A DNA stretch of 64,000 bases from an uncultured bacterium (GCA_963977015.1 CAXBMO010000009.1:181270-245269), one strand, 5' to 3'. Shown: positions 1,502 through 40,177, numbered from the stretch's first letter. Notes: generated by a model from the letters alone, not told the origin. Program-made: numbers and translations.

Positions 1502-2173
1502 TCAACGGGTGATGACCGTCGCCCGAATCGGGGTTTTTGAGCGAGCTTTGCCATAGAGCCTTTCCATCGGAATATCCAACACCGGATACTGCTCCCACCC
1601 CACCGCATCAAAGTGCCACCATTCCGTCTTCATGATTTTGAACCCATGGCGAACCATGACGGATTGAAGCGTCTTTCGATTCTCGAGAACGCGGCCTTTG
1701 AGTTTGAGATACTGGGCGTGGGCTTGCGGCGTAAAGACGTCGTAGCCAGTCGGCATTTCGAGCTCCCTGCCCATGGCATCGACGAGTGTCAGATCAACCG
1801 CCGCGCCTCGATTGTGTCGTGAGCCTCTGGCCGGGTTCGCCACGAATTTGGGGTTCGGCATGACCTTCCACAACTCCCGCTGGACGGCGAGAGGCCGATA
1901 TCCGTCCCAGAGTTTCAACCCAAGTCCCTGGTCTTCCAGTTCAGCCTGAACATTGGCCAACCGTTCCGCGACCGGGCGAAGCAGGTAGGCCCGATGCTCC
2001 GGGTAAAATTGTCTGCCACAAAAGTTGTTGGCCGTCGCATACGGCAGTTCCACAATGATTCCGGGGATGAAGTCATTGATGCAAACCAAGTCTGCGGCCC
2101 GAGTTGCCGACGAAGACAGACTTACAATGCCAACGGTGAGCATCAGAATTCTCATGAGCGGAACCAACATCAT
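1502..2173 (-). CDS. ddpX: D-alanyl-D-alanine dipeptidase (M15D, VanX/DdpX family), exported
   Basis: YATANNF, WDGYRP, SRHNRGAAVD (SxHxxGxAxD), EWWHF motifs; N-terminal signal peptide; ATGA overlap with upstream kinase stop. Confidence 0.9.
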   Translation of the reverse strand: MMLVPLMRILMLTVGIVSLSSSATRAADLVCINDFIPGIIVELPYATANNFCGRQFYPEHRAYLLRPVAERLANVQAELEDQGLGLKLWDGYRPLAVQRELWKVMPNPKFVANPARGSRHNRGAAVDLTLVDAMGRELEMPTGYDVFTPQAHAQYLKLKGRVLENRKTLQSVMVRHGFKIMKTEWWHFDAVGWEQYPVLDIPMERLYGKARSKTPIRATVITR

Positions 2174-4590
2174 TTGGGACGCATCAAGATTTTACCACTG
2201 CTTTGAAGCCGCGTCGCCATCCATCCGACCAATTCGGCGTAAACCCAATGCTTCCCATCGACATACCGTTCACTCAGTTGCTTGACGTAGACGTAGTTGT
2301 TCACCTCAGCAATTTTGTCACTTCCCGTGTCCGTGCCTGCGCGCATGGAAAGCACCCCATCGCTTGACTGGACACTCCAGGTTCCGTTGCCGGTCGACTT
2401 CATGTAGGTGGTTTGGGTCCCCTCGGCCACCATCCACCCTCTCACTCGAACTTCGACCCACCGATTGTTTGCGGTTCGCCCGGTTGCGACCAGAGGAACC
2501 GAAAACTGTCGAAACGCGGCGCCCAGACTGGCCGCATCGCTGTCAGCGGCCGCCCTGACCGTGACACCTTCTTTTCCCGCATAGACCACCTCATAATTGG
2601 ACACGGCTGGACTTTGCTGAACCGGCGTTGGATTCTCCGGGAAGGAAATTTCCGCGTCTTCAATGCGGGCGGAAAGGATAAACCCGGCATCATCAGTTCG
2701 GCTCGACTTGATCTCAAAGTAATTGGTTCCGGTAATGATTTTGCGAGTTGCCCCATCAGAAACGTAGTAGCGGGCCTTCAAGGAAACGGAATATCGCTCG
2801 CTCCGAATCTCGCTCACATGGGGCTCACTCAGAATTTCATGCGTCCTTTGAGTCCACCTCGAATTGTACGCGTTCAGCTTCTCGGCAATTTCATCTCGAC
2901 CGAGATAACCGTAGTCAAAATAGCGCGCCCGGTTCGCAAAAAAGCGAAGCTGGTCCTGACCCGAATCACTGTCGCCGGCGCTCAAATAGGCGAGCGCATA
3001 GTTTTTGACCGCTTCGCTGTGATCTTCTTTGACGGGTTCGGTTTTCGGCTCATCCGGAGGCGGAGTTACGGGTTTGGCGACCGACGCCAATTCGTTGGCT
3101 ACGTCCATTCGAATTTTTCGAACCCGGTCGCTCAGTTTGGTCACGGACTTGGAGTGCTTCCTCATTTCGTCCGCCAATTGATTTGCTTCGGCATGAACTT
3201 CAGCCGAGGCGCCCTGGCGTTTGGAGATCGACAACAATTCGTCCATTCGGTCCATGTTGGCTGACGCTTGATTCGTCATTCTTTCCACTTCATCAACATT
3301 GCTTCTGGCCTGGCTACGAAGTGCCGTCAGCCTGCCCCCCGAAGCGGTGCTGGTTTCCTTGTTAATGGCAATCCAATAGCCGTCTGCCCGATCCCTTTCG
3401 CTGCGAATCGTGGCAAAGGTGGTCGAAACCGATTGTCGTAGATCCCTCATCGCCGTTGGCGAAGTGCTTCCCGGAACGAAGCCGGCGACGGGATCAACCT
3501 TTGGCGGGGGATCGGCAGCATAGGTGATGCGAGCGGTTGTGCTCTGCACGTCTCCGGGAGGATGGAAACGTTCCCAGGCCAACCATCCTCCTACTCCCAG
3601 AATGGCAATGGAGGCAAAAACGACCGCAAACAGAAGACCACTTCTCCGATTCGGTTGACGTCCGGTGGCCAATCGTTCTGTTCGCTTTTTGAGTGCGGTT
3701 CGTCGTTTCCGGGCATTCTCGAAACATTCCCGCCATTCCCCCACAGTTTGAGGGCGATGGGTTTCTTCGAAAGATAGGGCGACATCGACGCCGTCAACGA
3801 AACCGCTCGAAAAATCCCCCAGGTCCAAGTTCTGAAAGTTCAACGGATCGACCGCTTTTGTCCGGCCGGCAGCTTCCGGAGGAGCCTTGCCAACCATCGC
3901 CCGATACATGACCGCACCCAGCGAATAAATGTCCGTCCAGGGTCCCTGATTCCCGCTCTCATGATACTGCTCGAACGGGGCATAAGCAGGTGTCAGGACA
4001 GCGGTCATCGCCCGGGTCTTTCCGCCCACCGCCAGTCTCGCACTCCCAAAATCGATCAACACCGGACTGCCATCGCGCGTGATGATGATGTTCTCCGGCT
4101 TGATGTCGCGATGCAGATAGCCATTCTCATGCACAACTTCCAATCCTTCCATGAGCTTGCTGAGAATGGTCCAGAGTTCATCCTCCGAAGGAGTCCGGTC
4201 CAATTTTTCCAACCAGTCTCCCAAACTCTCACCGTCGAGGAAGTCCGTTACCATGTAGCCGGTGCCATTCGCCTGGAAAATTTCATGAACGCAGACAATG
4301 GACTCGTGGTCGCAGGCGGCAAGGATGCGCCCCTCCTCCATAAATCGCTGTAGCGCCCATTGAAAGGTATCAACATCAGCCTGGGTTTTCGGCGCCACCC
4401 TCACTCCATCGCGGGTGGCAAAATCAGACGGGAGCAACTCTTTGATTGCCACCTTTCTTTTGAGCTCCAGATCCTTAGCCTCGTAGGTGATGCCAAACCC
4501 TCCAAAGCCCAGAATTCGGCCCAACTTGTAATGACTCAATTGCGTTCCCTCAGCGAGGGCCAACCGATGCGATCTAGCGGTTTGACTCAT
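2170..4590 (-). CDS. Membrane Ser/Thr protein kinase with extracytoplasmic helical region and two C-terminal SH3b-like repeats
   Basis: LGFGGFGITY, VAIKE, HRDIKPEN, DFG, APFEQ; TM LLFAVVFASIAILGVGGWLAW; two repeats of V/LxxRA...W...GWM at the C-terminus. Confidence 0.9.
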   Translation of the reverse strand: MSQTARSHRLALAEGTQLSHYKLGRILGFGGFGITYEAKDLELKRKVAIKELLPSDFATRDGVRVAPKTQADVDTFQWALQRFMEEGRILAACDHESIVCVHEIFQANGTGYMVTDFLDGESLGDWLEKLDRTPSEDELWTILSKLMEGLEVVHENGYLHRDIKPENIIITRDGSPVLIDFGSARLAVGGKTRAMTAVLTPAYAPFEQYHESGNQGPWTDIYSLGAVMYRAMVGKAPPEAAGRTKAVDPLNFQNLDLGDFSSGFVDGVDVALSFEETHRPQTVGEWRECFENARKRRTALKKRTERLATGRQPNRRSGLLFAVVFASIAILGVGGWLAWERFHPPGDVQSTTARITYAADPPPKVDPVAGFVPGSTSPTAMRDLRQSVSTTFATIRSERDRADGYWIAINKETSTASGGRLTALRSQARSNVDEVERMTNQASANMDRMDELLSISKRQGASAEVHAEANQLADEMRKHSKSVTKLSDRVRKIRMDVANELASVAKPVTPPPDEPKTEPVKEDHSEAVKNYALAYLSAGDSDSGQDQLRFFANRARYFDYGYLGRDEIAEKLNAYNSRWTQRTHEILSEPHVSEIRSERYSVSLKARYYVSDGATRKIITGTNYFEIKSSRTDDAGFILSARIEDAEISFPENPTPVQQSPAVSNYEVVYAGKEGVTVRAAADSDAASLGAAFRQFSVPLVATGRTANNRWVEVRVRGWMVAEGTQTTYMKSTGNGTWSVQSSDGVLSMRAGTDTGSDKIAEVNNYVYVKQLSERYVDGKHWVYAELVGWMATRLQSSGKILMRPK

Positions 4591-4769: not shown

Positions 4770-6230
4770 TTGGTTAATTCACCGCTAGCGACCAGACGCA
4801 CGAACGTTGCGTTCAGAAGGTTGGGATTTCTTCTGCTTTTTATCGGGATGGTTGCTCTGGGGTGGGCACGGTTCGATTTCCGACAAATAAAGGATGGAGT
4901 GGTCCGAATTGTCGTGTTGAGTGAGGAAGCGGAAACGACGGGCAAGGGAATGATTTCGCTAGGTTCCGGATTCGTCATTTCCTCCCAAGGTCATATCGTT
5001 ACAAATCAGCATATGATCGATAAACCGGGTAGGATTCTTGCGGTTCAACTTCGGGACAACAAAGTCAAAGTCTGGAGAGTCGGCGCCGTGGTGTATGAAA
5101 GCCGGGAAAAGGACTTGGCAGTCCTGCTGGTCCCCGAGCTCGGGGGCCTTCCAATCCGCCTTGCCAAGAACGATCCTTACCCTGGCGACGAAGTGATTAC
5201 GATCGGATTCCCTGGCATGGCCGATGCCCAACAGGAAAAGGATTTTTTCGTCAATGCGTTGCTGGAATCCGGGTTCCGCGACTTGCCACTGAAAGACGGT
5301 TACGTGAATTTCGTCCGGCCCTCCGTGATCCGCGGAAATGTGGAGGATGTCAGGATTCAATCAAATTGGGGACGCGACAACAATGCCCGGTGCACGATCA
5401 TTCGGCATAACGCACCCACAGCCAGTGGAAATAGCGGAGGCGCTCTGGTCAACGATTCCAACGAAATTGTCGGAGTGCATACCGCCAGCGATGCCGAGGC
5501 ACGTGATGACAAAACCAAGGCCTCACAGGGCAAAAAAGTCGGCCTGGGCCTCGCCGTCAGCGAACTGATCGAAGTCCTGGAATCCGTAGGCATTCCCTAC
5601 AACGAAATTCCTGCCAAGACGACCGGTGAAGTCGAACCAGGAAATTCCCGCTCGGAAACCTCCACAGCTGAAGAGGCGGCTCCCACTTGGGCCAAAGCAT
5701 TGCCCTTTGTAATGATCGGTTTGGCCGTGGTATTGGTTATTCCCGCGCTCAAGTTGCTGTTGGGAGATCGGACCTCAACAAAGACCGCACGCAGAAAGCC
5801 TCATCAACGAATCGCGGGCGAGTTCCCTTCTGCCCCGGCTTCAGAGAAGGGAGCCACGGTCGGAAACCAGAGGTCCAACCACCAATCCAACGGAAGATTA
5901 CTCGGCTCGTTATCGGGCACGGACGAGCAAGGAAAACGCTACTTTTTTCAACTTTCTGCTTCCGATTTTCAGGGAAGGGGCGATAGCTTGAAAGTCGGCA
6001 GGACAGGCAATCACGTCGAGATAGCTATCCCACATCCCAGCATTTCTCGAGTGCATGCATCCCTCCGTTATTCCCCTGACAATAATGAAATTGCACTACG
6101 TGATGAAAACTCTGCAAATGGTTGCAGAATCAACGGCAAAAAGTTGACGGCTAAGGACGGTTTTCAGCCAATCGGAGGCGGTGATTGTCTCCAGTTGGGA
6201 ACTGTGAAACTGGTTTACCAGCCCGAATAA
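4770..6230 (+). CDS. Trypsin-like serine protease - TM - FHA domain protein
   Basis: N-terminal hydrophobic segment; GSGF, VTNQH (His), KDLAVL (Asp), GNSGG (Ser); TM ALPFVMIGLAVVLVIPAL; FHA motifs VGR, SISRVH, SANG. TTG start preceded by AGGAGG. Confidence 0.88.
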   Translation: MVNSPLATRRTNVAFRRLGFLLLFIGMVALGWARFDFRQIKDGVVRIVVLSEEAETTGKGMISLGSGFVISSQGHIVTNQHMIDKPGRILAVQLRDNKVKVWRVGAVVYESREKDLAVLLVPELGGLPIRLAKNDPYPGDEVITIGFPGMADAQQEKDFFVNALLESGFRDLPLKDGYVNFVRPSVIRGNVEDVRIQSNWGRDNNARCTIIRHNAPTASGNSGGALVNDSNEIVGVHTASDAEARDDKTKASQGKKVGLGLAVSELIEVLESVGIPYNEIPAKTTGEVEPGNSRSETSTAEEAAPTWAKALPFVMIGLAVVLVIPALKLLLGDRTSTKTARRKPHQRIAGEFPSAPASEKGATVGNQRSNHQSNGRLLGSLSGTDEQGKRYFFQLSASDFQGRGDSLKVGRTGNHVEIAIPHPSISRVHASLRYSPDNNEIALRDENSANGCRINGKKLTAKDGFQPIGGGDCLQLGTVKLVYQPE

Positions 6231-6249
6231 CGACTCAAGTTTTCAATAA

Positions 6250-8046
6250 ATGGCATTAGAAAACCGACAGGCACTTATTCCAGGCACCATCTTGGGCGAA
6301 AAATACGAAATTCTTTCGTTACTCGGAAGCGGGGGATTCGGAATCACCTATCTCGCCATCGACAATACGCTCAATCGCAAAGTCGCGATCAAGGAGTTGA
6401 TGCCAGGCGAGTTTGCGATGCGGGATTGGGACTCCGAGGAGATCGTCGCAAAAACGCTGTCAGAGGAAACCTCACTCCAGTGGGCCAAGGATCGCTTCAT
6501 TGAGGAAGCACGGGTACTCGCCCAATTTGATCATCCTAACATCATTCATATCCACGACTATTTCATCTCGAGAAACACCGCCTACATGGTGACTTCTTAT
6601 GAAGAGGGAGCTGATCTCAATACGTTTTTAAAGGAGAAAGGGCTCTTTCATCAGGAAGACATCAACACTTACATTCTCCCGATCCTCAATGGACTGCAGC
6701 TGGTCCACGAAAGCGGATTTCTGCACCGCGACATCAAGCCCGACAATATCTACATCAATCACAAGGGCATCCCCATTCTTCTCGACTTTGGAGCGGCCCG
6801 CCAAGCCATTGGCAACAAAACCCGGGACATGACGGCGATCGTCACGCCCCGATTCGCGCCGTTGGAGCAATACTCCAGCGATGGGAATATGGGGCCGTGG
6901 TCAGATATCTATTCCCTCGCCGCCGTCATCCACAAAGTCATCACTGGCGATGCCCCACCTGACGCGACGACCCGGATTCGGTCCGATACCTACGAACCGT
7001 TGGCGGAAAAGCGCATCAAGGGCTTTGATCACGCGTTCTTGACCTGTGTTGACTGGGCCTTGGAACAGTCCGAGGAACGGCGACCGCAAACCATTGCTCA
7101 ATGGGTCGACCACTTCACGGTTTCGGGAGGCGCTCCACCAATCCCCACCGATCACTTTTCAGAAACCGTGGTGGCCGGAGGCAGTCGCGCCCCGTCGAGG
7201 CCTGTGAGAAGATCCACAGAAGAAACGGTCTTGACTCAACCTCGCCCCTCTTCAGCGGTTTCCGAACCCAGGAAATCACGCACAGGTCTCATCGCCGCCT
7301 TGTTTCTGGGATCAGCACTGTTTCTCGGCTTGGGAGGATTTGTGGCGCTGCGCCAATATTCCCCCGATCTCATCGCGTTCTTCGATAGCAGCGAATCCGA
7401 CAATGATTCATCCGGTCCCATTGACGACGGTACAGGCGGAAATGACACTGGGGCTCCACCACCCAACCCAATTCCCGAGGACGACAGCAAGCCCGACGTT
7501 TCCGAGGAAGAACCGGACAAGCAAACCGAATCCCCGATCATCCTCCCACCGACTCCTCCAAAACCGCCGGACGAGACCAAGCCTCCGGTAGAATCAGTTT
7601 CACTCGATGAGTTGGTCGACTACGTGACCGCTGTGGACCGCCGACTGTGGGATGCCTGGTATGCGGACCGAATCATTCGAGCGTCGATCCAACCGCAGAT
7701 GAACCTTCGTGATCCGGATATGAGCGAAGCGGAATTTCGGGCCAACCAGACCAAACTCCAGGAAGCCTTCACCGCCCGAAACAATCAGGTCATCCAGTAC
7801 TGCGAGGACGTTCGCCTCGACGTCGCGAAGCTGATGAAATACGAAGAGTCGCAAGTGGATCAGGCCTTTGCCGCCAGACTCAGCCAAATCCAGCAAACCG
7901 GAGTTGAGCGCAAGGTTAATACGGAAGTTCAACAGAAACTTCTTGGAATCGCAAAGTCCATTTATAAGGATGAAAAGGCGGGTTTGATCGTGAACGCAAA
8001 CGCCATCAGGGAACGAATCAAAGGCCTTTCTGCATTGCAGAAATAA
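6250..8046 (+). CDS. Membrane Ser/Thr protein kinase with C-terminal extracytoplasmic helical domain
   Basis: LGSGGFGITY, VAIKE, HRDIKPDN, DFG, APLEQ; TM LIAALFLGSALFLGLGGFVAL; Pro/acidic linker. Confidence 0.92.
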   Translation: MALENRQALIPGTILGEKYEILSLLGSGGFGITYLAIDNTLNRKVAIKELMPGEFAMRDWDSEEIVAKTLSEETSLQWAKDRFIEEARVLAQFDHPNIIHIHDYFISRNTAYMVTSYEEGADLNTFLKEKGLFHQEDINTYILPILNGLQLVHESGFLHRDIKPDNIYINHKGIPILLDFGAARQAIGNKTRDMTAIVTPRFAPLEQYSSDGNMGPWSDIYSLAAVIHKVITGDAPPDATTRIRSDTYEPLAEKRIKGFDHAFLTCVDWALEQSEERRPQTIAQWVDHFTVSGGAPPIPTDHFSETVVAGGSRAPSRPVRRSTEETVLTQPRPSSAVSEPRKSRTGLIAALFLGSALFLGLGGFVALRQYSPDLIAFFDSSESDNDSSGPIDDGTGGNDTGAPPPNPIPEDDSKPDVSEEEPDKQTESPIILPPTPPKPPDETKPPVESVSLDELVDYVTAVDRRLWDAWYADRIIRASIQPQMNLRDPDMSEAEFRANQTKLQEAFTARNNQVIQYCEDVRLDVAKLMKYEESQVDQAFAARLSQIQQTGVERKVNTEVQQKLLGIAKSIYKDEKAGLIVNANAIRERIKGLSALQK

Positions 8047-8101
8047 TGGACGACTTTTCTCAACAACTCTCCAACCAACAAAACACACACACAAAAACAC
8101 A

Positions 8102-8737
8102 ATGAAAATACGAATTGTAGCCCTGGCTCTGATTCCCGCACTGTTCCTATCCAGTTGCCAAACGACGAACATCGCAGAGACCCCGGATGAACTGAAAACG
8201 ATGCGCCAAGCCAAAATCACATGGGCTGGAGCCGGAGCGATTTCAGGAGCAGCCGTGGGTGCAGGCATCGCGGCATTGAGTGGCGGAAGCTCGACGGCGA
8301 TTCGTAATGCCGCAATTGGGGGCGGTATTGCAGGACTGGTGGCAGGACATCAAGTTGGAACACAGAAAGGCACGCAAACGGTAGAGAAAAAGCGGAGCTA
8401 CACGGCAACCGAAGATTACCTGGCTGGCCAAATCAGCAATGCGCAGAAGTTCAACTCCGCCTTGGTTTCCTATAACAGCAAGTTGAGGGGCCAAATCGCC
8501 TCTGCTAAGTCAAGTCCCGACGGTGCTGCGATTCGCGGTCAGATCAAAACCGCAAACGCCGTGCTGAAAGAGGTTGACTCGGAAATGACCACACGGACCA
8601 AGCTTTTGGAAAATGCGGAAAGTGGTCCATCCAAAAACACGCTTACCCAGAAGAAGAACAGCCTGGCTCAACAAAAGAAGCAGCTGGAAAACAGCATTGC
8701 TGAGCTCGAGGAATTGGAGAAAATCTCCAAGGTATAA
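8102..8737 (+). CDS. Glycine-zipper lipoprotein with C-terminal coiled coil
   Basis: Lipobox LSSC; GAGAISGAAVGAGIAAL and AAIGGGIAGLVAG glycine zippers; helical tail; C/A-rich unstructured leader 8060-8101. Confidence 0.8.
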   Translation: MKIRIVALALIPALFLSSCQTTNIAETPDELKTMRQAKITWAGAGAISGAAVGAGIAALSGGSSTAIRNAAIGGGIAGLVAGHQVGTQKGTQTVEKKRSYTATEDYLAGQISNAQKFNSALVSYNSKLRGQIASAKSSPDGAAIRGQIKTANAVLKEVDSEMTTRTKLLENAESGPSKNTLTQKKNSLAQQKKQLENSIAELEELEKISKV

Positions 8738-8770
8738 CCTTCGAGGAGTAGGACGACAACGAACCACCCT

Positions 8771-9157: not shown

Positions 9158-9184
9158 TCATGGAGTAGCGATCACGAATATCTT

Positions 9185-9224
9185 CCCCGCCTTCTCTCGC
9201 CACGCCAGAGAAGGCGGGGTTCTT
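9185..9224 (+). terminator. Strong hairpin (intrinsic terminator or mRNA-stabilising stem)
   Basis: Perfect 13-bp stem CCCCGCCTTCTCT / AGAGAAGGCGGGG, 9-nt loop, followed by TTCTT, just after the lipoprotein stop. Confidence 0.65.
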
Positions 9225-9297
9225 GGTGGCAGGCTTGGGAAATAACATGATAACTTTTCACAAAACACCGTGGAGGCGAACGCTACTACCGGGCTGA

Positions 9298-12002: not shown

Positions 12003-12010
12003 TTTGTCTG

Positions 12011-13273: not shown

Positions 13274-13294
13274 TAAACCTCTCAATACCGTAGA

Positions 13295-23292: not shown

Positions 23293-23322
23293 CCCTGCTC
23301 TCAACCCCTCATCCATGCTTCG

Positions 23323-28659: not shown

Positions 28660-31600
28660 AGAAGATACTCCTGACCTGGTTCACATTGCTCTGGTTGGTT
28701 GCCCTGCCAACTGCGTTGGGGAAACCCAACGTCCTCGTCGATTTTCCATCCTACGAAGAACCGGTTTCTCGCCCGGAAATCCTCCTTGGCCATCAAATCC
28801 GTGAAGCGCTCGTTCTCGCCTTGAAACAAAGCGGTCATCCCGTTGCCGTTGATGCACTGCTGGCGCCACCAACCACTGATTTCGACTTCCGACTTCCCAA
28901 CGCGCTTCCTTTTGAACTTCCGGCCGAGTTGCATCCCGAGGTTCGCTTTCGCATCGAGCATCTCAGTTCCAGCAACATCCGCATTGCGATCCGGTCCAAG
29001 GACTCGGAGCAATTCACTTCTTTTCTTGAATTCGCCGCTGGGGAAAAAGCTGTCTGGCCCAAAATCCAGAAGCAGGTCTACACATGGGCAGGAACCGATC
29101 CCCCCGATCAATCACCCGCCCTGCCGCCCGAACCCAACGCAGAAGCCCCTCGCTCTCCGTATCCCAATGATTCCGCCTGGCTCGATTCCGGGTTCACCGA
29201 CAGGCTCGCGACCTACAATGCCCTGGCTTCTCAACTCCACAGCCCCACATCGAATGCCAGGGAATATCCGCTCGCAGGTCTGGCCCGTCTGTCAGCCCTG
29301 CATGCGGCTTACTATAGCAGGATTGACGAGGTATCTGCATTTCGTTACGCAGCCCGGTCGCTGGTCTTTCTCGAAATGCTTGAGCAACAGGCATCGGCCC
29401 CTCCGGAAGTTCGCCATTTGATAGAGAACATCCGCTTTCTTGCCGAGCGCTTCACTCTGAGATCCTGGTTGCCGACACCAAAGACCGTCGTTCTGCCGGA
29501 ATTACAGCTCCTGATCAATCACGAGCGCAATCAAAATCTCACGATCCATCCCGGAGCAGAATCTCTCTTTGCATTGTTGGTTTCTTGCGAAGCTTATTCA
29601 CCGATCCGTGGCTATGATTCGGCCATCAGCAAAGCCCTCGATTTTGAAGGCTTTTTCGCCGCGCTTGATCAACGCGTGGAATCGGAAAAAACCCCAGCCT
29701 ATTCGGGGTTGATCGAAAACGGAGAACGATACTTGGAGCACGCCCTCGTCTTGGCCCGGCACACCGACTACACCTTCGATTCGGTCATGATGGTGGATCG
29801 CTATGTTTACGCTCTCTTTCAATTGAACCAGGAAGCCACTCCCACCGGTCAAGAGTTGGGAGTGCTGGCAAAACTTGATGGTTTCGAAGCGGTTGAAGGC
29901 CTCACAACAGAAGTCATCTCGTGGATCAATACGGCGGAGCAGCACTTTGACTGGCTTGATACGGAGGGCGCAGCCATTCCCAAAGACGACCTCACCGCCC
30001 ACACTCTCCCATACCTCAAAATCCTGGGGATATTGTACTGGCTGGACAACGAGATCCCCGACAAACCAGAGTTGTGTTATTCAAGCTCATGGAAACTCAA
30101 CTGGTATGACATCCGCCAAGAGTTCGTGAACCGTCACGCTTCTCTTGCCGTGTCCGCCTACGAGCGTTTCCAAGACCTTGGCGTCTCCCAAGCGAGTGCC
30201 ATGAAGCGGCAACTGAACCGCTTTGGAAACGAAAAGTTGAATCGCCCGAGCCGATTTCTCGCGCCGATTCAGATTACCCCGACCACGGTCGTATCCTGGC
30301 AATGGCTGTGCGAAGACTTGCAGACGCTTTGCGCTCAAGTGCGGTGTACTCCAGCGACCGGGATCCTGACAAAGTGTCCCACAATTCGCGACAGCATCGC
30401 CTCCGGCTCCCTATCAGAAGACCAACGTGTCATGTTCATCGACGCATTGCAGGAGTCGATTCAAGACCCTGAATTGGTTCAGCAAAGCAACTTTCTCGGC
30501 TGGATTGATGAATCTCTGATTCGAGAGATCCGCGAATTGATTCGCGAAGGGGATCCCGAAGCCGTGCCTCACATCAACGCATTCGTGCTCGGCATCATTT
30601 TTGACGGAGTCTTCGCGTTTCCTGATTCGTACGACAATTCTCCACTTCTATCCATCGCCGGTCGTCAAGCGAGTCGATGGGTCCGGCAGGCCAAGTACCT
30701 GGACAATCGCGGTCAGACCGACAAAGCGGCGACGATGGCGGAGAAAGCCTTCACATTGACTGACCAAAACAGCCTTTTCGGGAGCGACTATGTCATGATT
30801 CTTGGCAGAACCGGCCGACTTCACGAAGCCCTGGCCCAAATGGCAATCCTGGCGGCAGACGACTTCGCCCACGATTATCACCGACGCCGAGTTCTCAAAT
30901 GGCTCCCCCATTGCGGCGCCCTCAATTGCCCACAAGGTCTGGAAGTCAACCTGGCGGAGTATCTCGGAGAAAACACCACCGCGTCTTCCATGGATTATCT
31001 TGCTCGCGCAGAATATGCGTTTCGACTGGGCGAATGGGAAGTGATGAAACAAGTGGTCGACGACTTTCACTACGCAGGCTCTGCGCGCAGGGAGGTTTTG
31101 GATGCCATCGCCACAACGATGTTGAGCCGCCGGGACAACCCGGATTGGTCCCACATCGAATCCGCTCTTCGATCGGAGCTGGCAGCTTACGGCGGCAGCA
31201 TCCTGGAGTCCTATGATTTCTGGTTGGCCATCCTCGACCGCGAATTCGGCGACGCACCTGAGTGGGACGGCATCAAGCAACGAACCCGGTTTGAGGACAT
31301 TGCTCAACTGCATCACCACTCGAAACAGCTCTGGCTTCCGCTCAAAGAGGACGAAGCTGCCAAGATTCTGAACTGGTATCAGAAGACGACCGAAGCCTTT
31401 CTTGAGGAAGACGGCCCCTGGCAAACCGGTGTCGATGACTGGAAACTCAAAGCGGTGCTCGACGAACATCGTGCCCTTGGAAAATGGATCGCCCTGCAAA
31501 CGGACCGATTTCGGACTTCGCCCGCCCCGTCAGTCATCGAAACGGCAGCCACCGTTGTCCGGAAAACCAATGAAACCCGGGAGTTGCGGGCAAAACTCCA

Positions 31601-32132
31601 ACCTCGCGAACCGGTCGCCATGAATTTCATGGTGTGGTTGCTTCGCGAAGGTTGCCCACCGGAAAAGGTGGCGGAGTTTGCTGAGAACCTTGTCTCCAGT
31701 GGCGCGAATCCCTGTCACGGCGAGTCCATTCTTTGTGAGGCGGTTCGAGATTCCGAAGCGTTGTCCCTCATTTTGTCCTGGCCCAAGGAAGCCCTGCCGC
31801 GGAGGGCTGACGATCCCCAGAAATTCGCGATCGACCTCGAAGGGCTCTTTCAATGGGCTTTCGTCAACGGACGCGACACGATCGCCGAAGACGCAGCTCG
31901 GAAGTTGGCCGTGGAATCGTCCGATTTCAGGGCCCTCCAGCTCTTCTTTTCAGATCAGGACCAGGCGGCAGTCTGGATTCACAGCAACGCTCCGAGCCGC
32001 AAGTTGCTTGCCGTCTGGAAGCAGCAATTGAATTCCGAAAACCCGCACGAACGCCTCCGCAAGGAGCGAACGGCAGCCAGTCATCCAGCGCCCAAAATTC
32101 CGCGACCGCTCTGCGCTACCACGGTTGAATAG
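28656..32132 (+). CDS. Large exported hypothetical protein, helical (possibly TPR-like)
   Basis: Signal peptide MKKILLTWFTLLWLVALPTALG from ATG 28656, which overlaps the STAND gene stop (ATGA); long ORF with no recognised catalytic motif. Confidence 0.7.
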   Translation: MKKILLTWFTLLWLVALPTALGKPNVLVDFPSYEEPVSRPEILLGHQIREALVLALKQSGHPVAVDALLAPPTTDFDFRLPNALPFELPAELHPEVRFRIEHLSSSNIRIAIRSKDSEQFTSFLEFAAGEKAVWPKIQKQVYTWAGTDPPDQSPALPPEPNAEAPRSPYPNDSAWLDSGFTDRLATYNALASQLHSPTSNAREYPLAGLARLSALHAAYYSRIDEVSAFRYAARSLVFLEMLEQQASAPPEVRHLIENIRFLAERFTLRSWLPTPKTVVLPELQLLINHERNQNLTIHPGAESLFALLVSCEAYSPIRGYDSAISKALDFEGFFAALDQRVESEKTPAYSGLIENGERYLEHALVLARHTDYTFDSVMMVDRYVYALFQLNQEATPTGQELGVLAKLDGFEAVEGLTTEVISWINTAEQHFDWLDTEGAAIPKDDLTAHTLPYLKILGILYWLDNEIPDKPELCYSSSWKLNWYDIRQEFVNRHASLAVSAYERFQDLGVSQASAMKRQLNRFGNEKLNRPSRFLAPIQITPTTVVSWQWLCEDLQTLCAQVRCTPATGILTKCPTIRDSIASGSLSEDQRVMFIDALQESIQDPELVQQSNFLGWIDESLIREIRELIREGDPEAVPHINAFVLGIIFDGVFAFPDSYDNSPLLSIAGRQASRWVRQAKYLDNRGQTDKAATMAEKAFTLTDQNSLFGSDYVMILGRTGRLHEALAQMAILAADDFAHDYHRRRVLKWLPHCGALNCPQGLEVNLAEYLGENTTASSMDYLARAEYAFRLGEWEVMKQVVDDFHYAGSARREVLDAIATTMLSRRDNPDWSHIESALRSELAAYGGSILESYDFWLAILDREFGDAPEWDGIKQRTRFEDIAQLHHHSKQLWLPLKEDEAAKILNWYQKTTEAFLEEDGPWQTGVDDWKLKAVLDEHRALGKWIALQTDRFRTSPAPSVIETAATVVRKTNETRELRAKLQPREPVAMNFMVWLLREGCPPEKVAEFAENLVSSGANPCHGESILCEAVRDSEALSLILSWPKEALPRRADDPQKFAIDLEGLFQWAFVNGRDTIAEDAARKLAVESSDFRALQLFFSDQDQAAVWIHSNAPSRKLLAVWKQQLNSENPHERLRKERTAASHPAPKIPRPLCATTVE

Positions 32133-32145
32133 CGACTCTCCCGTT

Positions 32146-34833
32146 CTATCCCAACCAACCTGAGCGAAATGCCAGGACCGCAAGAGTGGCGAGGAGGGTA
32201 ATCACCAGGAGGGTGATGAGGATGGAGACGATCTTGAGTCCCGAACGCGGTGGCGTTGCTTGCGGCGGGAGGCTGCAGGCCGCTGGAGGAAGCCTGAATT
32301 CCTGCGTCTGGTCCAGATCGGCGGAGGGACGCGAAGTGGCAGCCGGCGCGGGCATGGGAGGGGCAGGTGGTGGGGAAACACTCCGGCGAACTGGGGGCTC
32401 CTCTTCCATCGAATTATCGCCCGGTTCAAATTGTAGGTTTCCGCCAAGGTCATGAATATCAAAGTCCTTTCCGGAAATGATCTCCTTTACCGTTCCATCC
32501 TCGGCCTCGGTAGTTTCCGAAGGTTCGAAGCTCGGTTCCGGCCCTTCTAACTTCTCCTCATTGGTCGATGCTTTGGGTTCCGGACGCCCAATGAGCCGCG
32601 TCGCCTCCTCTTCATCGCCTCCCCCACCGTAGACGGGAGCCGGTTCATCGTCTTCCTCGCTGCGCTCAATGATTCGCGTCTGCGATGGGATCTCACGGTT
32701 GACGGACGCGGAGTAGTCGGCCAGCGGATTGCTTGCGAGCTTGAGCGCTTGAAAGTGAATTGAAGACAACTCTCGCGGGGCCACCGGCATCGGCATTTCC
32801 CAGTAGGTTGGCCGGATGAAATTCTGCCGCCGTAGCGAAAGTGCGTGCCGATATTCCTGCATCACCACGTCTGATTGGCGGGAATTCGATGACCAAAAGA
32901 GCTGAAACACGTCTGCTTCCTCAATCAGGTTCATCAATTGCGGGTGCCAGGCCTCGCCCGCGCGCAGTTCCAGCAAATCCCGGAGGTAGCGATCGCCCAA
33001 CGTTTTGCCGTAGTTCTCGATCTGCTCGACAATGGCCAAATCCTGCCGGGAATAGGATGGAAAAATCCGCCGATAGAGCGCCGCCGAATCGGAAACCTGC
33101 TCGACTTCCGAAGGCAGGGAAACTCCGGCCGGGGTAATCTGAAAACGGAGGGGAACTTCCGCGACCATCAGACTGCCCAAATAAATGGAGAGACTGCCCG
33201 CCGCTTCCGTTGCGCCGCTGCCGATGGGGCGAAGCTGAAACTCTTCTTTGTGGACGTTGACGCCCCGGACCCAGAAAAAGGAGCGCGAGGGCGGATTGAA
33301 ACGGACTCCCGGCACGTGGGGCACCAGCCGAATCTCCGCTTCACGCGGAATCGCCAGGCTACTGTCCTTGGTGGTGTCGAGGTATTGGCTGATCTTTTCT
33401 CCCAAAACATCCCCCGCCTGCGCCCTCACCTCCTCAACCGGGTGCGCGGCGTTGGCCGGAGCGTCGATCGGCTTATCATCCAGGTGCGTGAACACCAGCA
33501 TCTGGCTCCACACATCCGCCGGGAGACTCTTGGGCCGATAGGTGGTGAACTGCACGTTCTCCGGCGGATATAACCCTTCCTCGCCGGCCACCTCCTCCAG
33601 AATTTCGCCGTCTTCACCGTCGTCAAACAGGCCGTCCGTCACTTCAATAGCCGGCTTGGCTGCGACCGGCTCCTTCGCCCACTCCTCAGGTTCGACGGGT
33701 TGCGCAACCGGAGGCACCACGGCCTCCTTTTTCTTCTCCAACTCCGGTTCAGGCTCCGGGACAGGTGCAGGCACGGGAAACGATGGCAATGGCGCCGGGG
33801 GTGCGACCGGCATCGGCACTGGCGCACCAGCGTCCTGCGAAGCCACCTCATGTGGAGGCTGGGAAGTCCCATCAAGCTCGTCTGTATCCTCCGTTTCTAC
33901 CGCCGGAGCCTCGACCACCGGTGGTGCGGGACGCTTTCCCAACAGTTTCCTCAACTCGTCAACGGACGCGGGCCGATCTTCCGCATCGACGGCAAAAGCC
34001 CGATCGATGGCCCCGAGCATCTCCGCCCCAAAGCGATCCACCAGCTCCTCATTCCCGGCCAACGCGGGCGATTTCTCCGGACTGGTCAACCGGGTTGGCG
34101 CGGGAGTTGGACGCTGCCGCGACACGACGTGATAAAACAACGCCCCCAGGGAATAAAGGTCGCTGGAAGGCCCCTCCACCACATCGGTCATGAACCGATC
34201 GATCGGCAAGTAAGGCGAAATGAGCCGTTCGCCATCATCATTCTTTTCGTAAGCGGCCTTGGCGGCGCCAAACTCAATGATCTTGGGCTCCTTCTTGGGT
34301 CCAGAAAGAACGACGTTATCCGGGGCAAGGTTCAGATGCAGCGCGCCTTTCTCGTGCAGGTATTCCACCCCATTCAGGACGCCGCTGATCAGGTCATACA
34401 ACTCCGCCGCACTCAACCAGTCCTCCTCACTCTCGCGCCTGCGGATCTCTTCACTCAGGGACCGGCCCACCACATACTGCAACACACAATACGCCGTCCC
34501 ATTCGCCTCAAAAACATCGAAGACTCGCACCAGTCGCGGATGGTCAAACTCCAGCCACTGCTTTGCCTCGCCCACAAAATCCTTCAACGTCGTTGCAAAA
34601 AGGTCGGCATACAGCGGGTTGCCCTCAAACGTCAGCACCTGCTGACTGGATGCCTCGCGATACGCCAAATCTTCAGGAAGCAGCTCCTTCACCACCACCT
34701 CACGCATCCGCACCGTATCCCAGGCCAGGTAGGTGTAGCCAAGGATTCCCGTCCCGAGGCGTTCACGAATCTTGTATTGTCCCAGACTCGTTGCCGGTGC
34801 CAACGGAGTCGCTTTTTGAGGCGGTGCTTCCAT
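32146..34833 (-). CDS. Pseudokinase - unknown beta domain - TIR domain - C-terminal TM protein
   Basis: Kinase fold with HLNLAPDN and IEFG; TIR-like IFPSYSRQD...LRAGEAW...IEEADVFQLFWSSNSRQSDVVMQE (~32750-33075); terminal TM IVSILITLLVITLLATLAVLAF. Confidence 0.83.
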   Translation of the reverse strand: MEAPPQKATPLAPATSLGQYKIRERLGTGILGYTYLAWDTVRMREVVVKELLPEDLAYREASSQQVLTFEGNPLYADLFATTLKDFVGEAKQWLEFDHPRLVRVFDVFEANGTAYCVLQYVVGRSLSEEIRRRESEEDWLSAAELYDLISGVLNGVEYLHEKGALHLNLAPDNVVLSGPKKEPKIIEFGAAKAAYEKNDDGERLISPYLPIDRFMTDVVEGPSSDLYSLGALFYHVVSRQRPTPAPTRLTSPEKSPALAGNEELVDRFGAEMLGAIDRAFAVDAEDRPASVDELRKLLGKRPAPPVVEAPAVETEDTDELDGTSQPPHEVASQDAGAPVPMPVAPPAPLPSFPVPAPVPEPEPELEKKKEAVVPPVAQPVEPEEWAKEPVAAKPAIEVTDGLFDDGEDGEILEEVAGEEGLYPPENVQFTTYRPKSLPADVWSQMLVFTHLDDKPIDAPANAAHPVEEVRAQAGDVLGEKISQYLDTTKDSSLAIPREAEIRLVPHVPGVRFNPPSRSFFWVRGVNVHKEEFQLRPIGSGATEAAGSLSIYLGSLMVAEVPLRFQITPAGVSLPSEVEQVSDSAALYRRIFPSYSRQDLAIVEQIENYGKTLGDRYLRDLLELRAGEAWHPQLMNLIEEADVFQLFWSSNSRQSDVVMQEYRHALSLRRQNFIRPTYWEMPMPVAPRELSSIHFQALKLASNPLADYSASVNREIPSQTRIIERSEEDDEPAPVYGGGGDEEEATRLIGRPEPKASTNEEKLEGPEPSFEPSETTEAEDGTVKEIISGKDFDIHDLGGNLQFEPGDNSMEEEPPVRRSVSPPPAPPMPAPAATSRPSADLDQTQEFRLPPAACSLPPQATPPRSGLKIVSILITLLVITLLATLAVLAFRSGWLG

Positions 34834-35039
34834 ATCTCTTGGGGAACAAATAAGGATTCAGGAAAACCCCGTCAAAATAATTGTCTAACATTTGCTCCAC
34901 TCAACTTCCTGCGTTGGCCTGGATCACCCGGGAGACGCAGCGATGTTGGGATGATTGAACGTTGCCAGTGCCCGTCGAGCTAACAATGTCGCAAAAATGC
35001 AGCGATCAATTTCGCCTCATTGACGAGCGGACCATCAGC

Positions 35040-35456
35040 TTAAAAGGCAAAGGTCAGCGCAATAGCTACGCCGGCGGAGAGGAACAGGAGGAGATTGAGG
35101 GACAGGTTGTAGATCCAGAACCGGCGCTGGTTGCGTTGCCCGGCCTCCAGATCCGGAAAGTGTCCGGTTTGGCTGAAGCGGGAGACCCACACGGCAAAGC
35201 GATGAAGGCTGATGGCGGGGTAGACGCCGAGCAGGGCCACGACGATGAGGACGATGCCGGTAGTCGTGGCGGCCGACGCCGGCACCAGATTGAGTTCCAT
35301 AACAAAGGGAACCCCTGCGATAAGGGCGCCCCCGAGGATGGCGCCAAAAAAGGCGTAAACCCCAATGATGGTGGAGGTCAGGCGAACCCAATCGCGTGTT
35401 TGATGAGCGGTATTTTGAATCCGCTCCATTTGATCGACCTTTTTGCGACGTCTCAT
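35040..35456 (-). CDS. Small 3-TM membrane protein (DUF5362-like)
   Basis: Three hydrophobic helices; pattern W.RL...YPAISLHRFA...QRRFW; lies directly downstream of the kinase. Confidence 0.65.
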   Translation of the reverse strand: MRRRKKVDQMERIQNTAHQTRDWVRLTSTIIGVYAFFGAILGGALIAGVPFVMELNLVPASAATTTGIVLIVVALLGVYPAISLHRFAVWVSRFSQTGHFPDLEAGQRNQRRFWIYNLSLNLLLFLSAGVAIALTFAF

Positions 35457-35468
35457 TCGGGTTGCGCG

Positions 35469-37436
35469 TTAATTCAGGGATTGAAAGACGATGACGATGA
35501 CCCCGATGGTGAGGGAGATGGCGGTGAGAAGGGAAAGGGTGCCAATGCCGGCCCAAACGAGACGCTGCTTCTTGAGGACCTTGTTGAGGGAAGAGACTTT
35601 GGGCGCTTGTTTGGCGCGACCGATGGAGATGGCCATCTGAAACTGGGAGAGCACAATGGAGAAGAGGATGATGGCGAGGACGCCAAGAAAGCTGCCGAAG
35701 CCAATAATGGGGGCTTCTTCTTCCTGAACTCCGCCCAAAATCATCACGGTAGCCCCCAAGGCAAAGAAGCCCGAAACGAGGAGGCCGACGATACCGAGGA
35801 TGACGACAAAGGGCTGAAATTTGCTAAACTCGCGAACGAGGCCCATGAACTCGGGTTCTTGCTCGAGCCGTAGCTCTTCTTCGCGAAGAATGGCGGCTTC
35901 TTCTTCCTGCTGTTTGGCGAGGGCCCCCTCCTCTGCTTTCTTTTTCGCAAGGCGAGCTTCCTCCTCTGCCTTCTTCTTGGCGAGTTTTTCTTCCTCGGCG
36001 GCTTTTTTCCGGGCCTGACGCTCTTCTTCTTCGGCTTTCTTTTTGGCGAGACGCTCTTCTTCCCTGGCTTTTCGCTCCTCTTCTTCCGCTTTTTTCCTGG
36101 CGAGGCGTTCTTCCTCCTCTTGTTGCTTCTTCGCTAAAGCTTCGGCCGCTGTTTCATCGTCGTCATCATCATCGGGCAGCGGTTGGCGGACGGGTTCACG
36201 CTCCTCGGGCAGGGACGGCGGCGTAATGGCTTTGGCCCCGCTTTGACGCTTGGGATCGATGAGGATGGTGCCGCCGGGTTCGGCATCCTGGGCAATCTTG
36301 GCAGACTCGCTTCCTTCCTTGCGGAGGATGACACCGTCTTCATCCATTTCCGTGGCGACTTTGTCAGCTTTGGCCTCGGCTATTTTGGCGGAGGCGGCTT
36401 CCAGTTGGCGGGCGACGTTCTGTTTGGTGGCAGTCCAGGCGGAGGCGCCAAATTTGAGTCCCTTGCCAATGGCTTCACCAATTCCGGCGCCAACCGCCGC
36501 AGGGTCTTTGGACTCCGGGGAGTCAGCCACGACGTGCTCAAAAAGTCCCCGCCACTCGGCAACGGTCCGCGGGCGTTTGTCTTCGTCGACTTCAAGCGCG
36601 CGGTCGATCGCACGAAGGAAGGCCAGCTCGGCGCGATCCGGGTTCTTGATGATTTTGGCGAGTTTCTCGACCGGGTCGGGTTTCTTCTTCAACCGCGCGT
36701 TGGCGCGTTGGCTGGAATCGGTTGGTTTTTCGCCGAGTAGGCAGCGATAGCAAACCGCGCCGAGGGCATAGAGGTCCGTCCAGGGCCCCTGAAGCTGAGG
36801 ATCACCCGAGTATTGCTCAAACGGAGCGTATCCAGGGGTGACGATGCTGGTCACGGAGCGGCTTTTTTCGGCAATGCCCTGCCGGGCAGCGCCAAAGTCG
36901 AGCAAAATGGGCACGCCCTTCTCCGTAATGATGATGTTGTCGGGCTTGATGTCGCGGTGCAGGACGTCATTGCGATGCACTTCCTCAAGACCATTGGCCA
37001 ACTGGAGGATGATCTCGCGCACGTCCTCCAACGGAAGGCGATCTCGCTCAGACTTGCTGAGACGCTTGCCCAAATCGTCGCCTTCCACGTATTCCATGAC
37101 GCAGTAGACGGTCTCATTGGCCTGAATGACGCGATGAACGCCGACAATGTTGGGGTGTTTGAACTTGGCCAAGGTCCGCGCCTCTTCGATAAAGGCGTCT
37201 CGCGCCCACTCGAACTCGTCTTTGTGACCGATGGTGATGGGAATGACGGTGCAACCGGTCCCCCGCATCGCGATCCCGTCAGGCAGCAACTCCTTGATGG
37301 CAACCTTCAGCCCAAGGTCGATATCCTGAGCGAGATAGGTGATGCCAAAGCCGCCTTTGCCCAGAACTTTGAGAATTTGATACCCCTCAATCCGAAATTC
37401 GGCGGGCAAGGAGATCTGGTCCTGAGGGTTATCCAT
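35469..37436 (-). CDS. Ser/Thr protein kinase with charged helical stalk and C-terminal 3-TM module
   Basis: LGKGGFGITY, VAIKE, HRDIKPDN, DFG, APFEQ; E/K/R repeat region; three TMs. Confidence 0.92.
   Translation of the reverse strand: MDNPQDQISLPAEFRIEGYQILKVLGKGGFGITYLAQDIDLGLKVAIKELLPDGIAMRGTGCTVIPITIGHKDEFEWARDAFIEEARTLAKFKHPNIVGVHRVIQANETVYCVMEYVEGDDLGKRLSKSERDRLPLEDVREIILQLANGLEEVHRNDVLHRDIKPDNIIITEKGVPILLDFGAARQGIAEKSRSVTSIVTPGYAPFEQYSGDPQLQGPWTDLYALGAVCYRCLLGEKPTDSSQRANARLKKKPDPVEKLAKIIKNPDRAELAFLRAIDRALEVDEDKRPRTVAEWRGLFEHVVADSPESKDPAAVGAGIGEAIGKGLKFGASAWTATKQNVARQLEAASAKIAEAKADKVATEMDEDGVILRKEGSESAKIAQDAEPGGTILIDPKRQSGAKAITPPSLPEEREPVRQPLPDDDDDDETAAEALAKKQQEEEERLARKKAEEEERKAREEERLAKKKAEEEERQARKKAAEEEKLAKKKAEEEARLAKKKAEEGALAKQQEEEAAILREEELRLEQEPEFMGLVREFSKFQPFVVILGIVGLLVSGFFALGATVMILGGVQEEEAPIIGFGSFLGVLAIILFSIVLSQFQMAISIGRAKQAPKVSSLNKVLKKQRLVWAGIGTLSLLTAISLTIGVIVIVFQSLN
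35870..36150 (-). repeat. Coding E/K/R/A repeats (ER/K single-alpha-helix-like)
   Basis: Imperfect ~11-aa units such as EEEERLARKKA, EEERLAKKKA, EEEKLAKKKA; boundaries approximate. Confidence 0.75.
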
Positions 37437-40171: not shown

Positions 40172-40177
40172 CTGCTC

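Follow-up and report, generated by a model that had tools for sequence, protein, structure and literature searches.

A motor cassette joined to kinases and phosphothreonine readers in an uncultured bacterium: a putative phospho-gated machine of the cell envelope

A locus of an uncultured bacterium is here described as an unusually large, expanded copy of a rare and horizontally scattered envelope cassette, in which an ion-driven motor is predicted to be gated by threonine phosphorylation (probability about 0.55). The locus occupies positions 2170-37436 of a 64,000-nucleotide stretch of DNA (GCA_963977015.1 CAXBMO010000009.1:181270-245269), hereafter the window, and carries 20 real genes as judged from an open reading frame (ORF) census (Table 1). 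It lies on contig C9 of a genome of 6.9 Mb that is 95% complete (G000). Ion-driven 5:2 motors (MotAB, ExbBD, TolQR, GldLM and ZorAB) form a small set of machines that move energy across the bacterial envelope, and each new partner of such a motor has revealed a new cell function. The invariant core of the present cassette consists of a TolQ-like channel, a partner protein with an Asp-bearing transpore helix and a vWA domain, membrane kinases with variable outer domains, and small FHA proteins encoded on the flanks of the channel gene. Since the motor is inherited together with eukaryote-like kinases and phosphothreonine readers in every well-covered locus examined, switching by Ser/Thr phosphorylation is predicted, and this would be the first motor of the 5:2 type to be predicted under such control. 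The motor core itself was predicted previously; the regulatory wiring was found in no paper, and the immune-type additions in this genome are unusual.

The channel protein belongs to a divergent family, for which 1483 relatives were detected at E ≤ 1e-5 with identity of 45-58% across phyla, and its residues P187, T194, T229 and T230 were invariant among 16 sequences. No tolR, exbD or motB was found beside the channel gene among the Pfam matches of the locus proteins, the ExbD and MotB models not having been searched separately. The TolR/ExbD subunit of the motor is replaced by the vWA partner of 328 amino acids (aa). This protein starts with a short basic stretch followed by a helix with an invariant Asp, and the helix motif [ST]x[ILVM]D[ILVM][FLIM] was kept in 101 of the 106 related ORFs from 80 loci. 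An AlphaFold (AF2) model from an 11-sequence alignment (pLDDT 83) showed a continuous helix at residues 9-144, followed by the vWA head; by simple arithmetic the stalk, some 110 residues in length, would extend for about 16 nm within the periplasm. The head resembles ITIH1, ANTXR2, BatA/BatB of Bacteroides and integrin I domains, and its metal ion-dependent adhesion site (MIDAS) is intact (DMSGS). Complex prediction for the channel and the 139-aa FHA protein gave a score of 0.01 against a mark of 0.32, which is no evidence either way.

A motor of this kind was predicted in a computational study of 2025 (PMC12204202). According to the text of that study, TolQ-like genes of Proteobacteria and Verrucomicrobia 'co-occur extremely tightly' with genes for membrane-tethered vWA proteins, without tolR or exbD. 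The vWA proteins carry a 'transpore helix' with a proton-binding Asp and are 'predominantly' encoded by a heterologous pair of genes; a conserved ring of channel threonines surrounds the Asp in a 5:2 assembly, and the function is given as unknown, with force transduction, possibly gliding, as a suggestion. The window shares with these motors the TolQ-like gene without tolR or exbD and the vWA protein with an Asp transpore helix, but has one gene of the latter type instead of a heterologous pair; the likeness to these motors, for which the study used an Idiomarina seed, is one of described features. The words 'kinase', 'phosphatase' and 'forkhead' do not occur in the main text of PMC12204202, indicating that the kinase, FHA, PP2C and protease wiring is not described there. 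No description of the kinase-FHA-motor combination was found in a literature search outside which subscription journals and supplements lay. The first-pass annotation did not recognise the locus as a named system, which holds only in part, as the motor core had been described.

In all six frames of the window a single transpore helix was found, and two in a genome of the same genus (G001), of which the channel protein is about 70% identical; the mean was 1.64 copies per locus among 39 well-covered loci. The second transpore-helix protein of G001 (contig C21:148692-149486, locus L089) is 264 aa long with a non-vWA tail, and its gene is located just upstream of the vWA-TM-FHA gene (TM, transmembrane segment). 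Because a gap of 207 nt (20001-20207) lies at that site, the window seems to have lost the second gene. In the paired vWA proteins of 23 gammaproteobacterial loci (within L033-L079), one partner usually has a MIDAS of DxSxS or DxTxS type and the other none that is recognisable. A DxSxS MIDAS was present in 38 of 90 full-length vWA ORFs with a transpore helix. The motor axle may pair one binding head with one silent head.

Conservation was determined with one genome each for 185,579 species. A channel relative was found in 472 loci, the best-scoring 80 were fetched, and 39 of the 80, those flanked on either side by 6 kb or more and coming from at least six phyla, were taken as full loci. Components of the full loci were counted by BLAST against the window proteins, and the counts are lower bounds. 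A transpore-helix protein, a Ser/Thr kinase and at least one FHA protein were each present in 39/39, a PP2C phosphatase in 13/39, a trypsin-TM-FHA protein in 8/39 and a vWA-TM-FHA protein in 2/39. Genes for PP2C, protease-TM-FHA and TPR-CHAT proteins often accompany the core. Unsupervised clustering of the ORFs from all 80 loci, in which counts are lowered by many short contigs, recovered the small FHA protein in 74, transpore-helix proteins in 66 (113 ORFs), kinases in 57, adaptor-type FHA proteins in 45, X-TM-FHA proteins in 43 and PP2C in 27. Carriers belong to Verrucomicrobiota, Planctomycetota, Alpha- and Gammaproteobacteria, Binatia, Latescibacterota and Acidobacteriota, and the gene order FHA-channel-FHA-PP2C recurs in Verrucomicrobiota, Latescibacterota, Gammaproteobacteria, Binatia and Acidobacteriota. 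That the genes form no chance cluster is supported by the joint occurrence, across phyla, of homologues of the MotA-like, TM-vWA, FHA, kinase, PP2C and trypsin-TM-FHA genes. Clustering beyond chance was also indicated within the genome, where 6 of the 15 FHA matches and 6 of the 28 kinase matches are inside these 35 kb and no FHA or kinase match was found within 10 kb of any of the other 17 MotA/ExbB-family matches.

The cassette has a very patchy distribution. Orthologs of the channel were detected in 2 of 40 relatives and in 1 of 400 other sampled genomes of the phylum, and three further relatives had only the 34-36% paralog type that is also present on contig C17 of the studied genome. In G001 the block runs in the order secreted protein, STAND, pseudokinase-FHA, vWA protein with transpore helix, kinase, second transpore-helix protein, vWA-TM-FHA, FHA, channel, adaptor, PP2C, kinase, protease-FHA, PP2C-TM, lipoproteins, kinase and protease-FHA; in the 74 kb fetched from G001, none of the flanking genes of the window surrounds the kept block. 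A cultured strain of Rhizobium leguminosarum carries the cassette on a conjugative 1.3-Mb plasmid (locus L093, NZ_CP125637.1:154450-173052), with two PP2Cs, three FHA proteins, a kinase-PDZ protein and a transpore-helix protein with a non-vWA head, and genetics should be possible with this megaplasmid copy. An unannotated secreted protein of 1610 aa, belonging to no Pfam family, is encoded there between the transpore-helix and X-TM-FHA genes.

The phosphothreonine readers include candidate phospho-sites of their own. In the 228-aa adaptor the motif acidic-x-T-R-[IL]-[IV]-R is repeated three times ahead of the FHA domain, and three T-x-hydrophobic-hydrophobic motifs were found at matching places in 8/8 adaptor homologues of Verrucomicrobia and Planctomycetes (L003-L010) and in the G001 ortholog; adaptors of other phyla carry looser variants ahead of FHA. 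In the 139-aa FHA protein the phosphothreonine-binding residues G10, R11, S30 and H33 were invariant among 12 sequences, and the C-terminus ends in a conserved P-E-T-G-E-I-I motif. Many FHA domains classically prefer Thr with a hydrophobic residue at +3, and for this reason the motifs of both proteins are obvious candidates for kinase targets and FHA ligands, open to direct test as such. The C-terminal N-P-E-T-G-E-I-I of the small FHA protein also resembles the N-terminal R-G-P-D-G-K-I-I-E-E of adaptors in Gammaproteobacteria and Latescibacterota, and both may represent a single short docking motif, placed at one end or the other.

The first-pass annotation counted six kinase domains, two PP2C phosphatases, eight FHA domains, two trypsin-type proteases, two vWA domains, a MotA/ExbB protein, an ABC exporter, two lipoproteins, a STAND NTPase and a TIR domain, and this census was borne out by Pfam (6 kinase, 2 PP2C, 2 trypsin-TM-FHA, 2 vWA, 1 MotA/ExbB, FHA-FHA-ABC, nSTAND1 and TIR), with seven FHA domains above the threshold and the eighth weak. 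The eighth, at the C-terminus of the 21460-23292 product, was matched in Pfam only as Yop-YscD_cpl (E 0.0075) and is 36-47% identical in BLAST to the FHA domains of adaptor homologues. The count of six kinases holds, but not all of them are catalytic: four retain Lys, H(R/C)D and DFG, and the other two are pseudokinases as judged from their catalytic residues, with Lys to Glu, HRD to HLG and DFG to EFG at 21460-23292 and with HRD to HLN and DFG to EFG at 32146-34833. Metal motifs are retained in both PP2Cs. The outer domains of the kinases vary among loci, with FGE-sulfatase, beta-helix/NosD and PDZ types elsewhere and no recognised fold in the window. For the 806-aa kinase, which has no G001 ortholog, the kinase domain is inside and the outer part of about 470 aa was not assigned to a fold; a single-sequence fold of this part (467 aa) gave a pLDDT of 46 and was unusable.

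Overlapping stop and start codons, also noted at first sight, were seen as 4-nt overlaps at 2170-2173, 10578-10581, 18103-18106 and 28656-28659 and as a 1-nt overlap at 16564. Topologies were predicted with a crude hydropathy script, which placed kinase, PP2C and FHA domains on the cytoplasmic side and protease and vWA domains outside, in agreement with the earlier prediction; an outer 'SH3b-like' domain of that prediction was a weak match (SH3_3, E 0.02). Both trypsin-TM-FHA proteins are accordingly predicted to have a periplasmic protease and a cytoplasmic FHA domain. The FHA domain of the vWA-TM-FHA protein is likewise cytoplasmic, and its periplasmic vWA has a degenerate MIDAS (DLSAP).

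Table 1. Genes of the locus, in order of position in the window (lengths in amino acids; E values from Pfam; percentages are identity to the G001 ortholog)
Gene product	Position	Strand	Features
Receptor Ser/Thr kinase, 806 aa	2170-4590	-	Pkinase E 1.8e-36; VAIK, HRD and DFG present; TM 319-337
Trypsin-TM-FHA protein, 486 aa	4770-6230	+	Trypsin_2 E 7e-20; FHA E 4e-11; His/Asp/Ser motifs; 54%
Receptor Ser/Thr kinase, 598 aa	6250-8046	+	Pkinase E 1e-39; catalytic motifs present; TM 347-365; 52%
Lipoprotein, 211 aa	8102-8737	+	Lipobox LSSC; glycine-rich segment and coiled coil; 60%
Lipoprotein, 128 aa	8771-9157	+	Lipobox GTAC; coiled coil; 53%
PP2C-TM protein, 427 aa	9298-10581	+	PP2C_2 E 2.4e-11; metal-site motifs; TM 262-280; proline-rich outer tail
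Second trypsin-TM-FHA protein, 474 aa	10578-12002	+	Trypsin_2 E 3e-24; FHA E 4e-18; catalytic triad present
Ser/Thr kinase with C-terminal TM anchor, 420 aa	12011-13273	+	Pkinase E 4e-25; HCD, DFG and Lys present; 66%
FHA-FHA-ABCG-type half-transporter, 804 aa	13295-15709	-	Pfam FHA x2, ABC_tran, ABC2_membrane
Soluble PP2C, 259 aa, core accessory	15785-16564	-	PP2C_2 E 2e-14; 74%
Adaptor, 228 aa	16564-17250	-	Disordered N-tail, then FHA (E 1.2e-6); three TR[IL][IV] motifs at T7, T37 and T73
TolQ/ExbB/MotA-like channel, divergent, 276 aa	17276-18106	-	3 TM; MotA_ExbB PF01618 E 1.5e-9, residues 147-253
Small FHA protein, 139 aa	18103-18522	-	FHA E 2.6e-8; translationally coupled to channel gene
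vWA-TM-FHA protein, 486 aa	18540-20000	-	Signal peptide; VWA E 3e-6; FHA E 6e-20
Motor partner, 328 aa	20208-21194	-	Transpore helix with Asp17, helical stalk of ~110 residues, MIDAS vWA head; VWA_3 E 8.5e-13
Pseudokinase with C-terminal adaptor-type FHA, 610 aa, cytoplasmic	21460-23292	+	Pkinase E 2e-17; 43%
nSTAND1 NLR-like protein, 1778 aa	23323-28659	+	PF20703 E 4e-87, residues 217-677; TM 730-748
Secreted protein, ~1158 aa	28656-32132	+	Signal peptide; ATGA overlap with STAND stop
Pseudokinase-TIR protein, 895 aa	32146-34833	-	Pkinase E 1e-23; TIR_2 E 1.2e-9; acidic linker; C-terminal TM
Ser/Thr kinase with three C-terminal TM, 655 aa	35469-37436	-	Pkinase E 5e-39; catalytic motifs present

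The likeliest role of the cassette, proposed here only tentatively, is phospho-gated surveillance of the envelope or conflict, with proteolytic and cell-death-type outputs. We lean toward this role because the cassette is rare and patchily distributed, its sensors vary, and caspase-like, STAND and TIR genes recur beside it. In such a machine, the receptor kinases would sense an envelope cue and phosphorylate Thr within T-x-hydrophobic-hydrophobic motifs, for example the three TR[IL][IV] motifs of the adaptor. The eight FHA domains would then read these marks and gather or gate the motor, the two tethered trypsin-like proteases and the vWA-TM-FHA protein, the proteases and this second vWA protein being recruited through their cytoplasmic FHA tails; in the studied genome only, the FHA-FHA-ABCG exporter might also be recruited or gated. 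Proton flow through the TolQ-like pentamer would drive the vWA-headed stalk, by turning or pulling it, against a ligand in the periplasm or outer membrane, and the two PP2Cs would reset the switch.

Not all genes of the locus belong to the cassette, and the view of a single 21-gene machine, as taken in the first-pass annotation, did not hold. The ABC exporter, STAND and TIR genes are lineage-specific additions. For the FHA-FHA-ABC gene, no match at E ≤ 1e-10 was found in the 74 kb from G001 and no FHA-fused ABC gene in the other loci, suggesting an insertion specific to the cassette of this window; closest solved relatives of its product in a PDB search were ABCG/PDR transporters. The mycobacterial exporter Rv1747 consists of two N-terminal FHA domains and an ABCG-type half-transporter, and is associated with PknF. 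By architecture (two FHA domains, nucleotide-binding domain and ABC-2 membrane domain, beside Ser/Thr kinases) the present exporter resembles Rv1747, with which it was compared by description only, and it differs in being a lineage-specific insert in a cassette.

The right-hand third of the locus (21460-34833) is a lineage-specific NLR-like module made of the pseudokinase-FHA protein, the nSTAND1 protein, the secreted protein and the pseudokinase-TIR protein. The pseudokinase-FHA gene is the first of the STAND operon. The N-terminal end of the STAND protein is weakly TIR-like (DUF4062, E 0.099); a run of Arg precedes the helix at 730-748 and about 1030 beta-rich residues, for which no family was matched, follow it, so that the protein probably spans the membrane with a large outer part. 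Its neighbour, annotated as an ORF of 1218 aa, was re-annotated with the true start at 28656, as its G001 ortholog likewise starts at the STAND stop; the secreted product matched no Pfam or NCBIfam family, and a weak TPR lead in a protein-atlas look-up, below the recognition mark, makes it possibly a helical repeat protein. A full-length STAND ortholog was found in G001 only, and neither the STAND gene nor its secreted partner had a counterpart in 40 larger loci. The N-terminal part of about 770 residues belongs to a multi-copy family, with several copies in the studied genome and others in 5 relatives without the motor; these paralogs share residues 1 to ~770, differ in their C-terminal parts and have no kinase or FHA gene within 1.5 kb. 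The pseudokinase-TIR gene has no ortholog in G001, and its TIR part had no match in the other loci; the best match of the TIR region among PDB sequences was RUN1 (E 0.42), and a Glu at the expected place (MQEY) was noted by eye only.

From these distributions the locus could be taken as a mosaic island, in which the motor, kinase and FHA cassette (4770-21194), an inserted Rv1747-like exporter, and a STAND/TIR defence module with kinases (2170-4590 and 21460-37436) lie side by side with no cross-talk. The definition of nSTAND1 comes from counter-invader systems that include TIR, peptidases, kinases and FHA among their components (PMC8195603), and such systems with kinase and FHA parts are described there as standing on their own. 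The present module is like them in these parts, but its STAND protein seems to cross the membrane and to have a large outer part, and the partner of this protein is secreted and encoded by a coupled gene. We consider an island of independent parts rather unlikely. G001 keeps STAND, partner and pseudokinase-FHA beside the motor even though the flanking genes of the window are absent there; the FHA domain of the pseudokinase is of the cassette adaptor type; both pseudokinases align with the cassette kinase clade; and the exporter, with its two FHA domains, is encoded between a phosphatase and a kinase of the cassette. In addition, the TIR protein shares a rare motif with the adaptor: at least two TR[IL][IV] motifs were found in only 3 of the 7549 ORFs (≥150 aa) of the genome, and two of these are the adaptor and, about 15 kb apart from it, the pseudokinase-TIR protein, with T719 and T745 in the acidic stretch after TIR. 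This sharing is suggestive only of a coupling between TIR and cassette. Since the kinase-like domains of the module look like dead copies of cassette kinases and the TIR protein bears the adaptor motif, the STAND/TIR module probably taps the phosphothreonine code of the cassette. Fusions of dead kinases to FHA and TIR, together with a membrane-spanning STAND protein beside the cassette, suggest a concrete output, as observed in one genome.

A bolder form of this coupling, which we regard as improbable, is that the phosphothreonine code joins a proton-driven envelope probe to NLR-like and TIR cell-death effectors. The vWA motor and the receptor kinases would detect envelope attack; the kinases would mark TR[IL][IV] motifs on adaptor and pseudokinase-TIR protein; and FHA domains, including that of the pseudokinase-FHA protein, would assemble or release the effectors. 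In gammaproteobacteria the same slot would be taken by TPR-CHAT, whose caspase-like gene lies beside the two vWA genes in 23 loci and has diverged to as little as 29% identity. If true, this would be a bacterial route from mechanical or adhesive sensing outside to suicide of innate-immune type inside.

Alternatively, the cassette might have no role in conflict and act as a phospho-regulated transducer of force in an envelope task, be it surface adhesion or gliding, the tethering or remodelling of the outer membrane, or uptake, in the manner of Tol-Pal, TonB or Agl-Glt, with the proteases serving in maturation or quality control. A MIDAS vWA head carried at the end of a long stalk resembles an adhesin, and force transduction is what PMC12204202 suggests for the motor. 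In Myxococcus, Agl-Glt is described as combining a TolQR-type motor with the FHA-bearing GltG and the vWA adhesin CglB (PMC11761067, PMC9946355). The likeness lies in a TolQ/TolR-type motor, an FHA inner-membrane protein and a vWA protein within a trans-envelope machine; the difference is that Agl has TolR-like subunits and a vWA protein that is a lipoprotein of the outer membrane and does not form the motor axle. A GltG match in NCBIfam was obtained for the FHA domain at 18540-20000, and no other Glt homologue was seen at the locus. Envelope work is also in line with the lipoproteins that accompany the locus in both the window and G001, of which the two lipoboxes confirm the earlier assignment, and with a gene for a signal-peptide M15 D-Ala-D-Ala dipeptidase (VanX/VanY-like) at 1502-2173 (- strand), the start of which overlaps the end of the gene for the 806-aa kinase by 4 nt. 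Because of this overlap the dipeptidase and the kinase are probably co-transcribed, which would tie the kinase to cell-wall peptides; the dipeptidase gene is outside the block kept in G001. A purely mechanical role nevertheless seems doubtful in view of the very patchy distribution, the variable outer sensors with many kinase paralogs, and the recurrence of the cassette beside CHAT, STAND and TIR genes, none of these points being decisive.

Threonine phosphorylation controls the type VI secretion system (T6SS) through TagQRST-PpkA-PppA-Fha1, made of a Hanks-type kinase, a PP2C phosphatase, an FHA reader, a lipoprotein and an ABC transporter. In both cases a membrane kinase, PP2C and FHA would switch an envelope machine, with lipoproteins and an ABC transporter upstream, but the machine here is a TolQ-like motor with proteases. 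That the locus is an annex of T6SS or of another known secretion system, as its kinase, PP2C and FHA set with lipoproteins and ABC transporter and a weak TagH-type match on two FHA domains might suggest, is rejected as extremely improbable, since TssC (PF05943) and Hcp (PF05638) gave 0 matches in the 95%-complete genome, no T6SS structural gene was detected by Pfam in the window, as already noticed in the first-pass annotation, and related loci centre on the motor and not on T6SS genes.

Several observations weigh against a phospho-gated motor engaged in surveillance or conflict. The evidence is made of gene content, conservation, motifs and catalytic residues, and all interactions, phosphorylation events, the direction of signalling and the biological role are predictions made from these. 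The motor and vWA parts would suit adhesion, gliding or work at the outer membrane just as well. The locus counts are not independent, because they come from the best-scoring 80 of 472 loci, with many related gammaproteobacteria among them, and most loci carry a heterologous pair of transpore-helix genes where the window has one. The channel-family profile gave 0 matches at E ≤ 0.01 to PDB sequences, and with no solved relative by sequence the channel threonines are only putative equivalents of those of ExbB and TolQ. The TR[IL][IV] link was seen post hoc, with two copies of the motif, in one genome and in a TIR gene without G001 ortholog, and the lack of kinase and FHA genes around the STAND paralogs points in the same direction. 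A scan of IMG/VR with the channel alignment detected no relative on phage contigs. PADLOC, put forward at the outset as a check, was run with 17 locus proteins and recognised no known defence system, giving only domain-level matches (generic kinase, protease domains of RT-Protease and LmuA, PDC-M21C for PP2C, and a partial ZorA).

Zorya is an anti-phage system with the motor ZorAB, which is MotA-like, of 5:2 type, used outside flagella and possibly an envelope sensor coupled to effectors. The ZorA match at the locus (model ZorA2) was partial and weak, with E 5.9e-5 over 90 residues, and no ZorB, ZorC, ZorD or other Zor model was matched among the 17 proteins. The motor partner in the window differs from that of Zorya in having a vWA head and not a peptidoglycan-binding domain. 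Combined use of FHA and vWA proteins under kinase and phosphatase control is described for the archaeal ArnA (FHA) and ArnB (vWA), which act together according to PMC6509490; the likeness ends with their location, as ArnA and ArnB are cytoplasmic regulators of archaellum expression.

As to the host, the genome is from the Planctomycetes-Verrucomicrobia-Chlamydiae (PVC) group: the closest homologues of the channel protein are those of Akkermansiaceae, Luteolibacter, Haloferula, Roseibacillus and one Pirellula assembly, and DUF1552, DUF1592 and PSCyt genes are found downstream of the locus. The 211-aa lipoprotein is weakly similar to the glycine-zipper family of YiaD (E 2.9e-5) and had no match in 40 other loci; it showed no similarity to the glycine-zipper lipoprotein of alphaproteobacterial loci, and homology between the two is not claimed. 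Only families of coiled-coil type were matched by the 128-aa lipoprotein.

A second divergent MotA-like gene of the same genome (contig C17:89052-92972, locus L002) codes for 503 aa with an N-terminal zinc-ribbon-like CxxC...CxxC and is followed by two genes (277 and 508 aa) with ExbD/TolR-like helices at the start of their products. It was rejected as another copy of the system, since no FHA or kinase gene was found nearby. Scans of the locus for tRNA and Rfam families gave no match. An ORF of 303 aa without family at 34962-35873 (+ strand) runs antisense into the 3' end of the kinase gene at 35469-37436 and is probably not a gene; otherwise no gene was assigned to the gap of 636 nt at 34834-35468. 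Beyond the locus, a protein with an FGE-sulfatase domain is encoded at 39146-44175 (- strand), beside DUF1552 and DUF1592/PSCyt genes, which together form a usual set of the PVC group. FGE-sulfatase is an outer sensor of cassette kinases in other phyla, and the copy at 39146-44175 looks unrelated to the locus.

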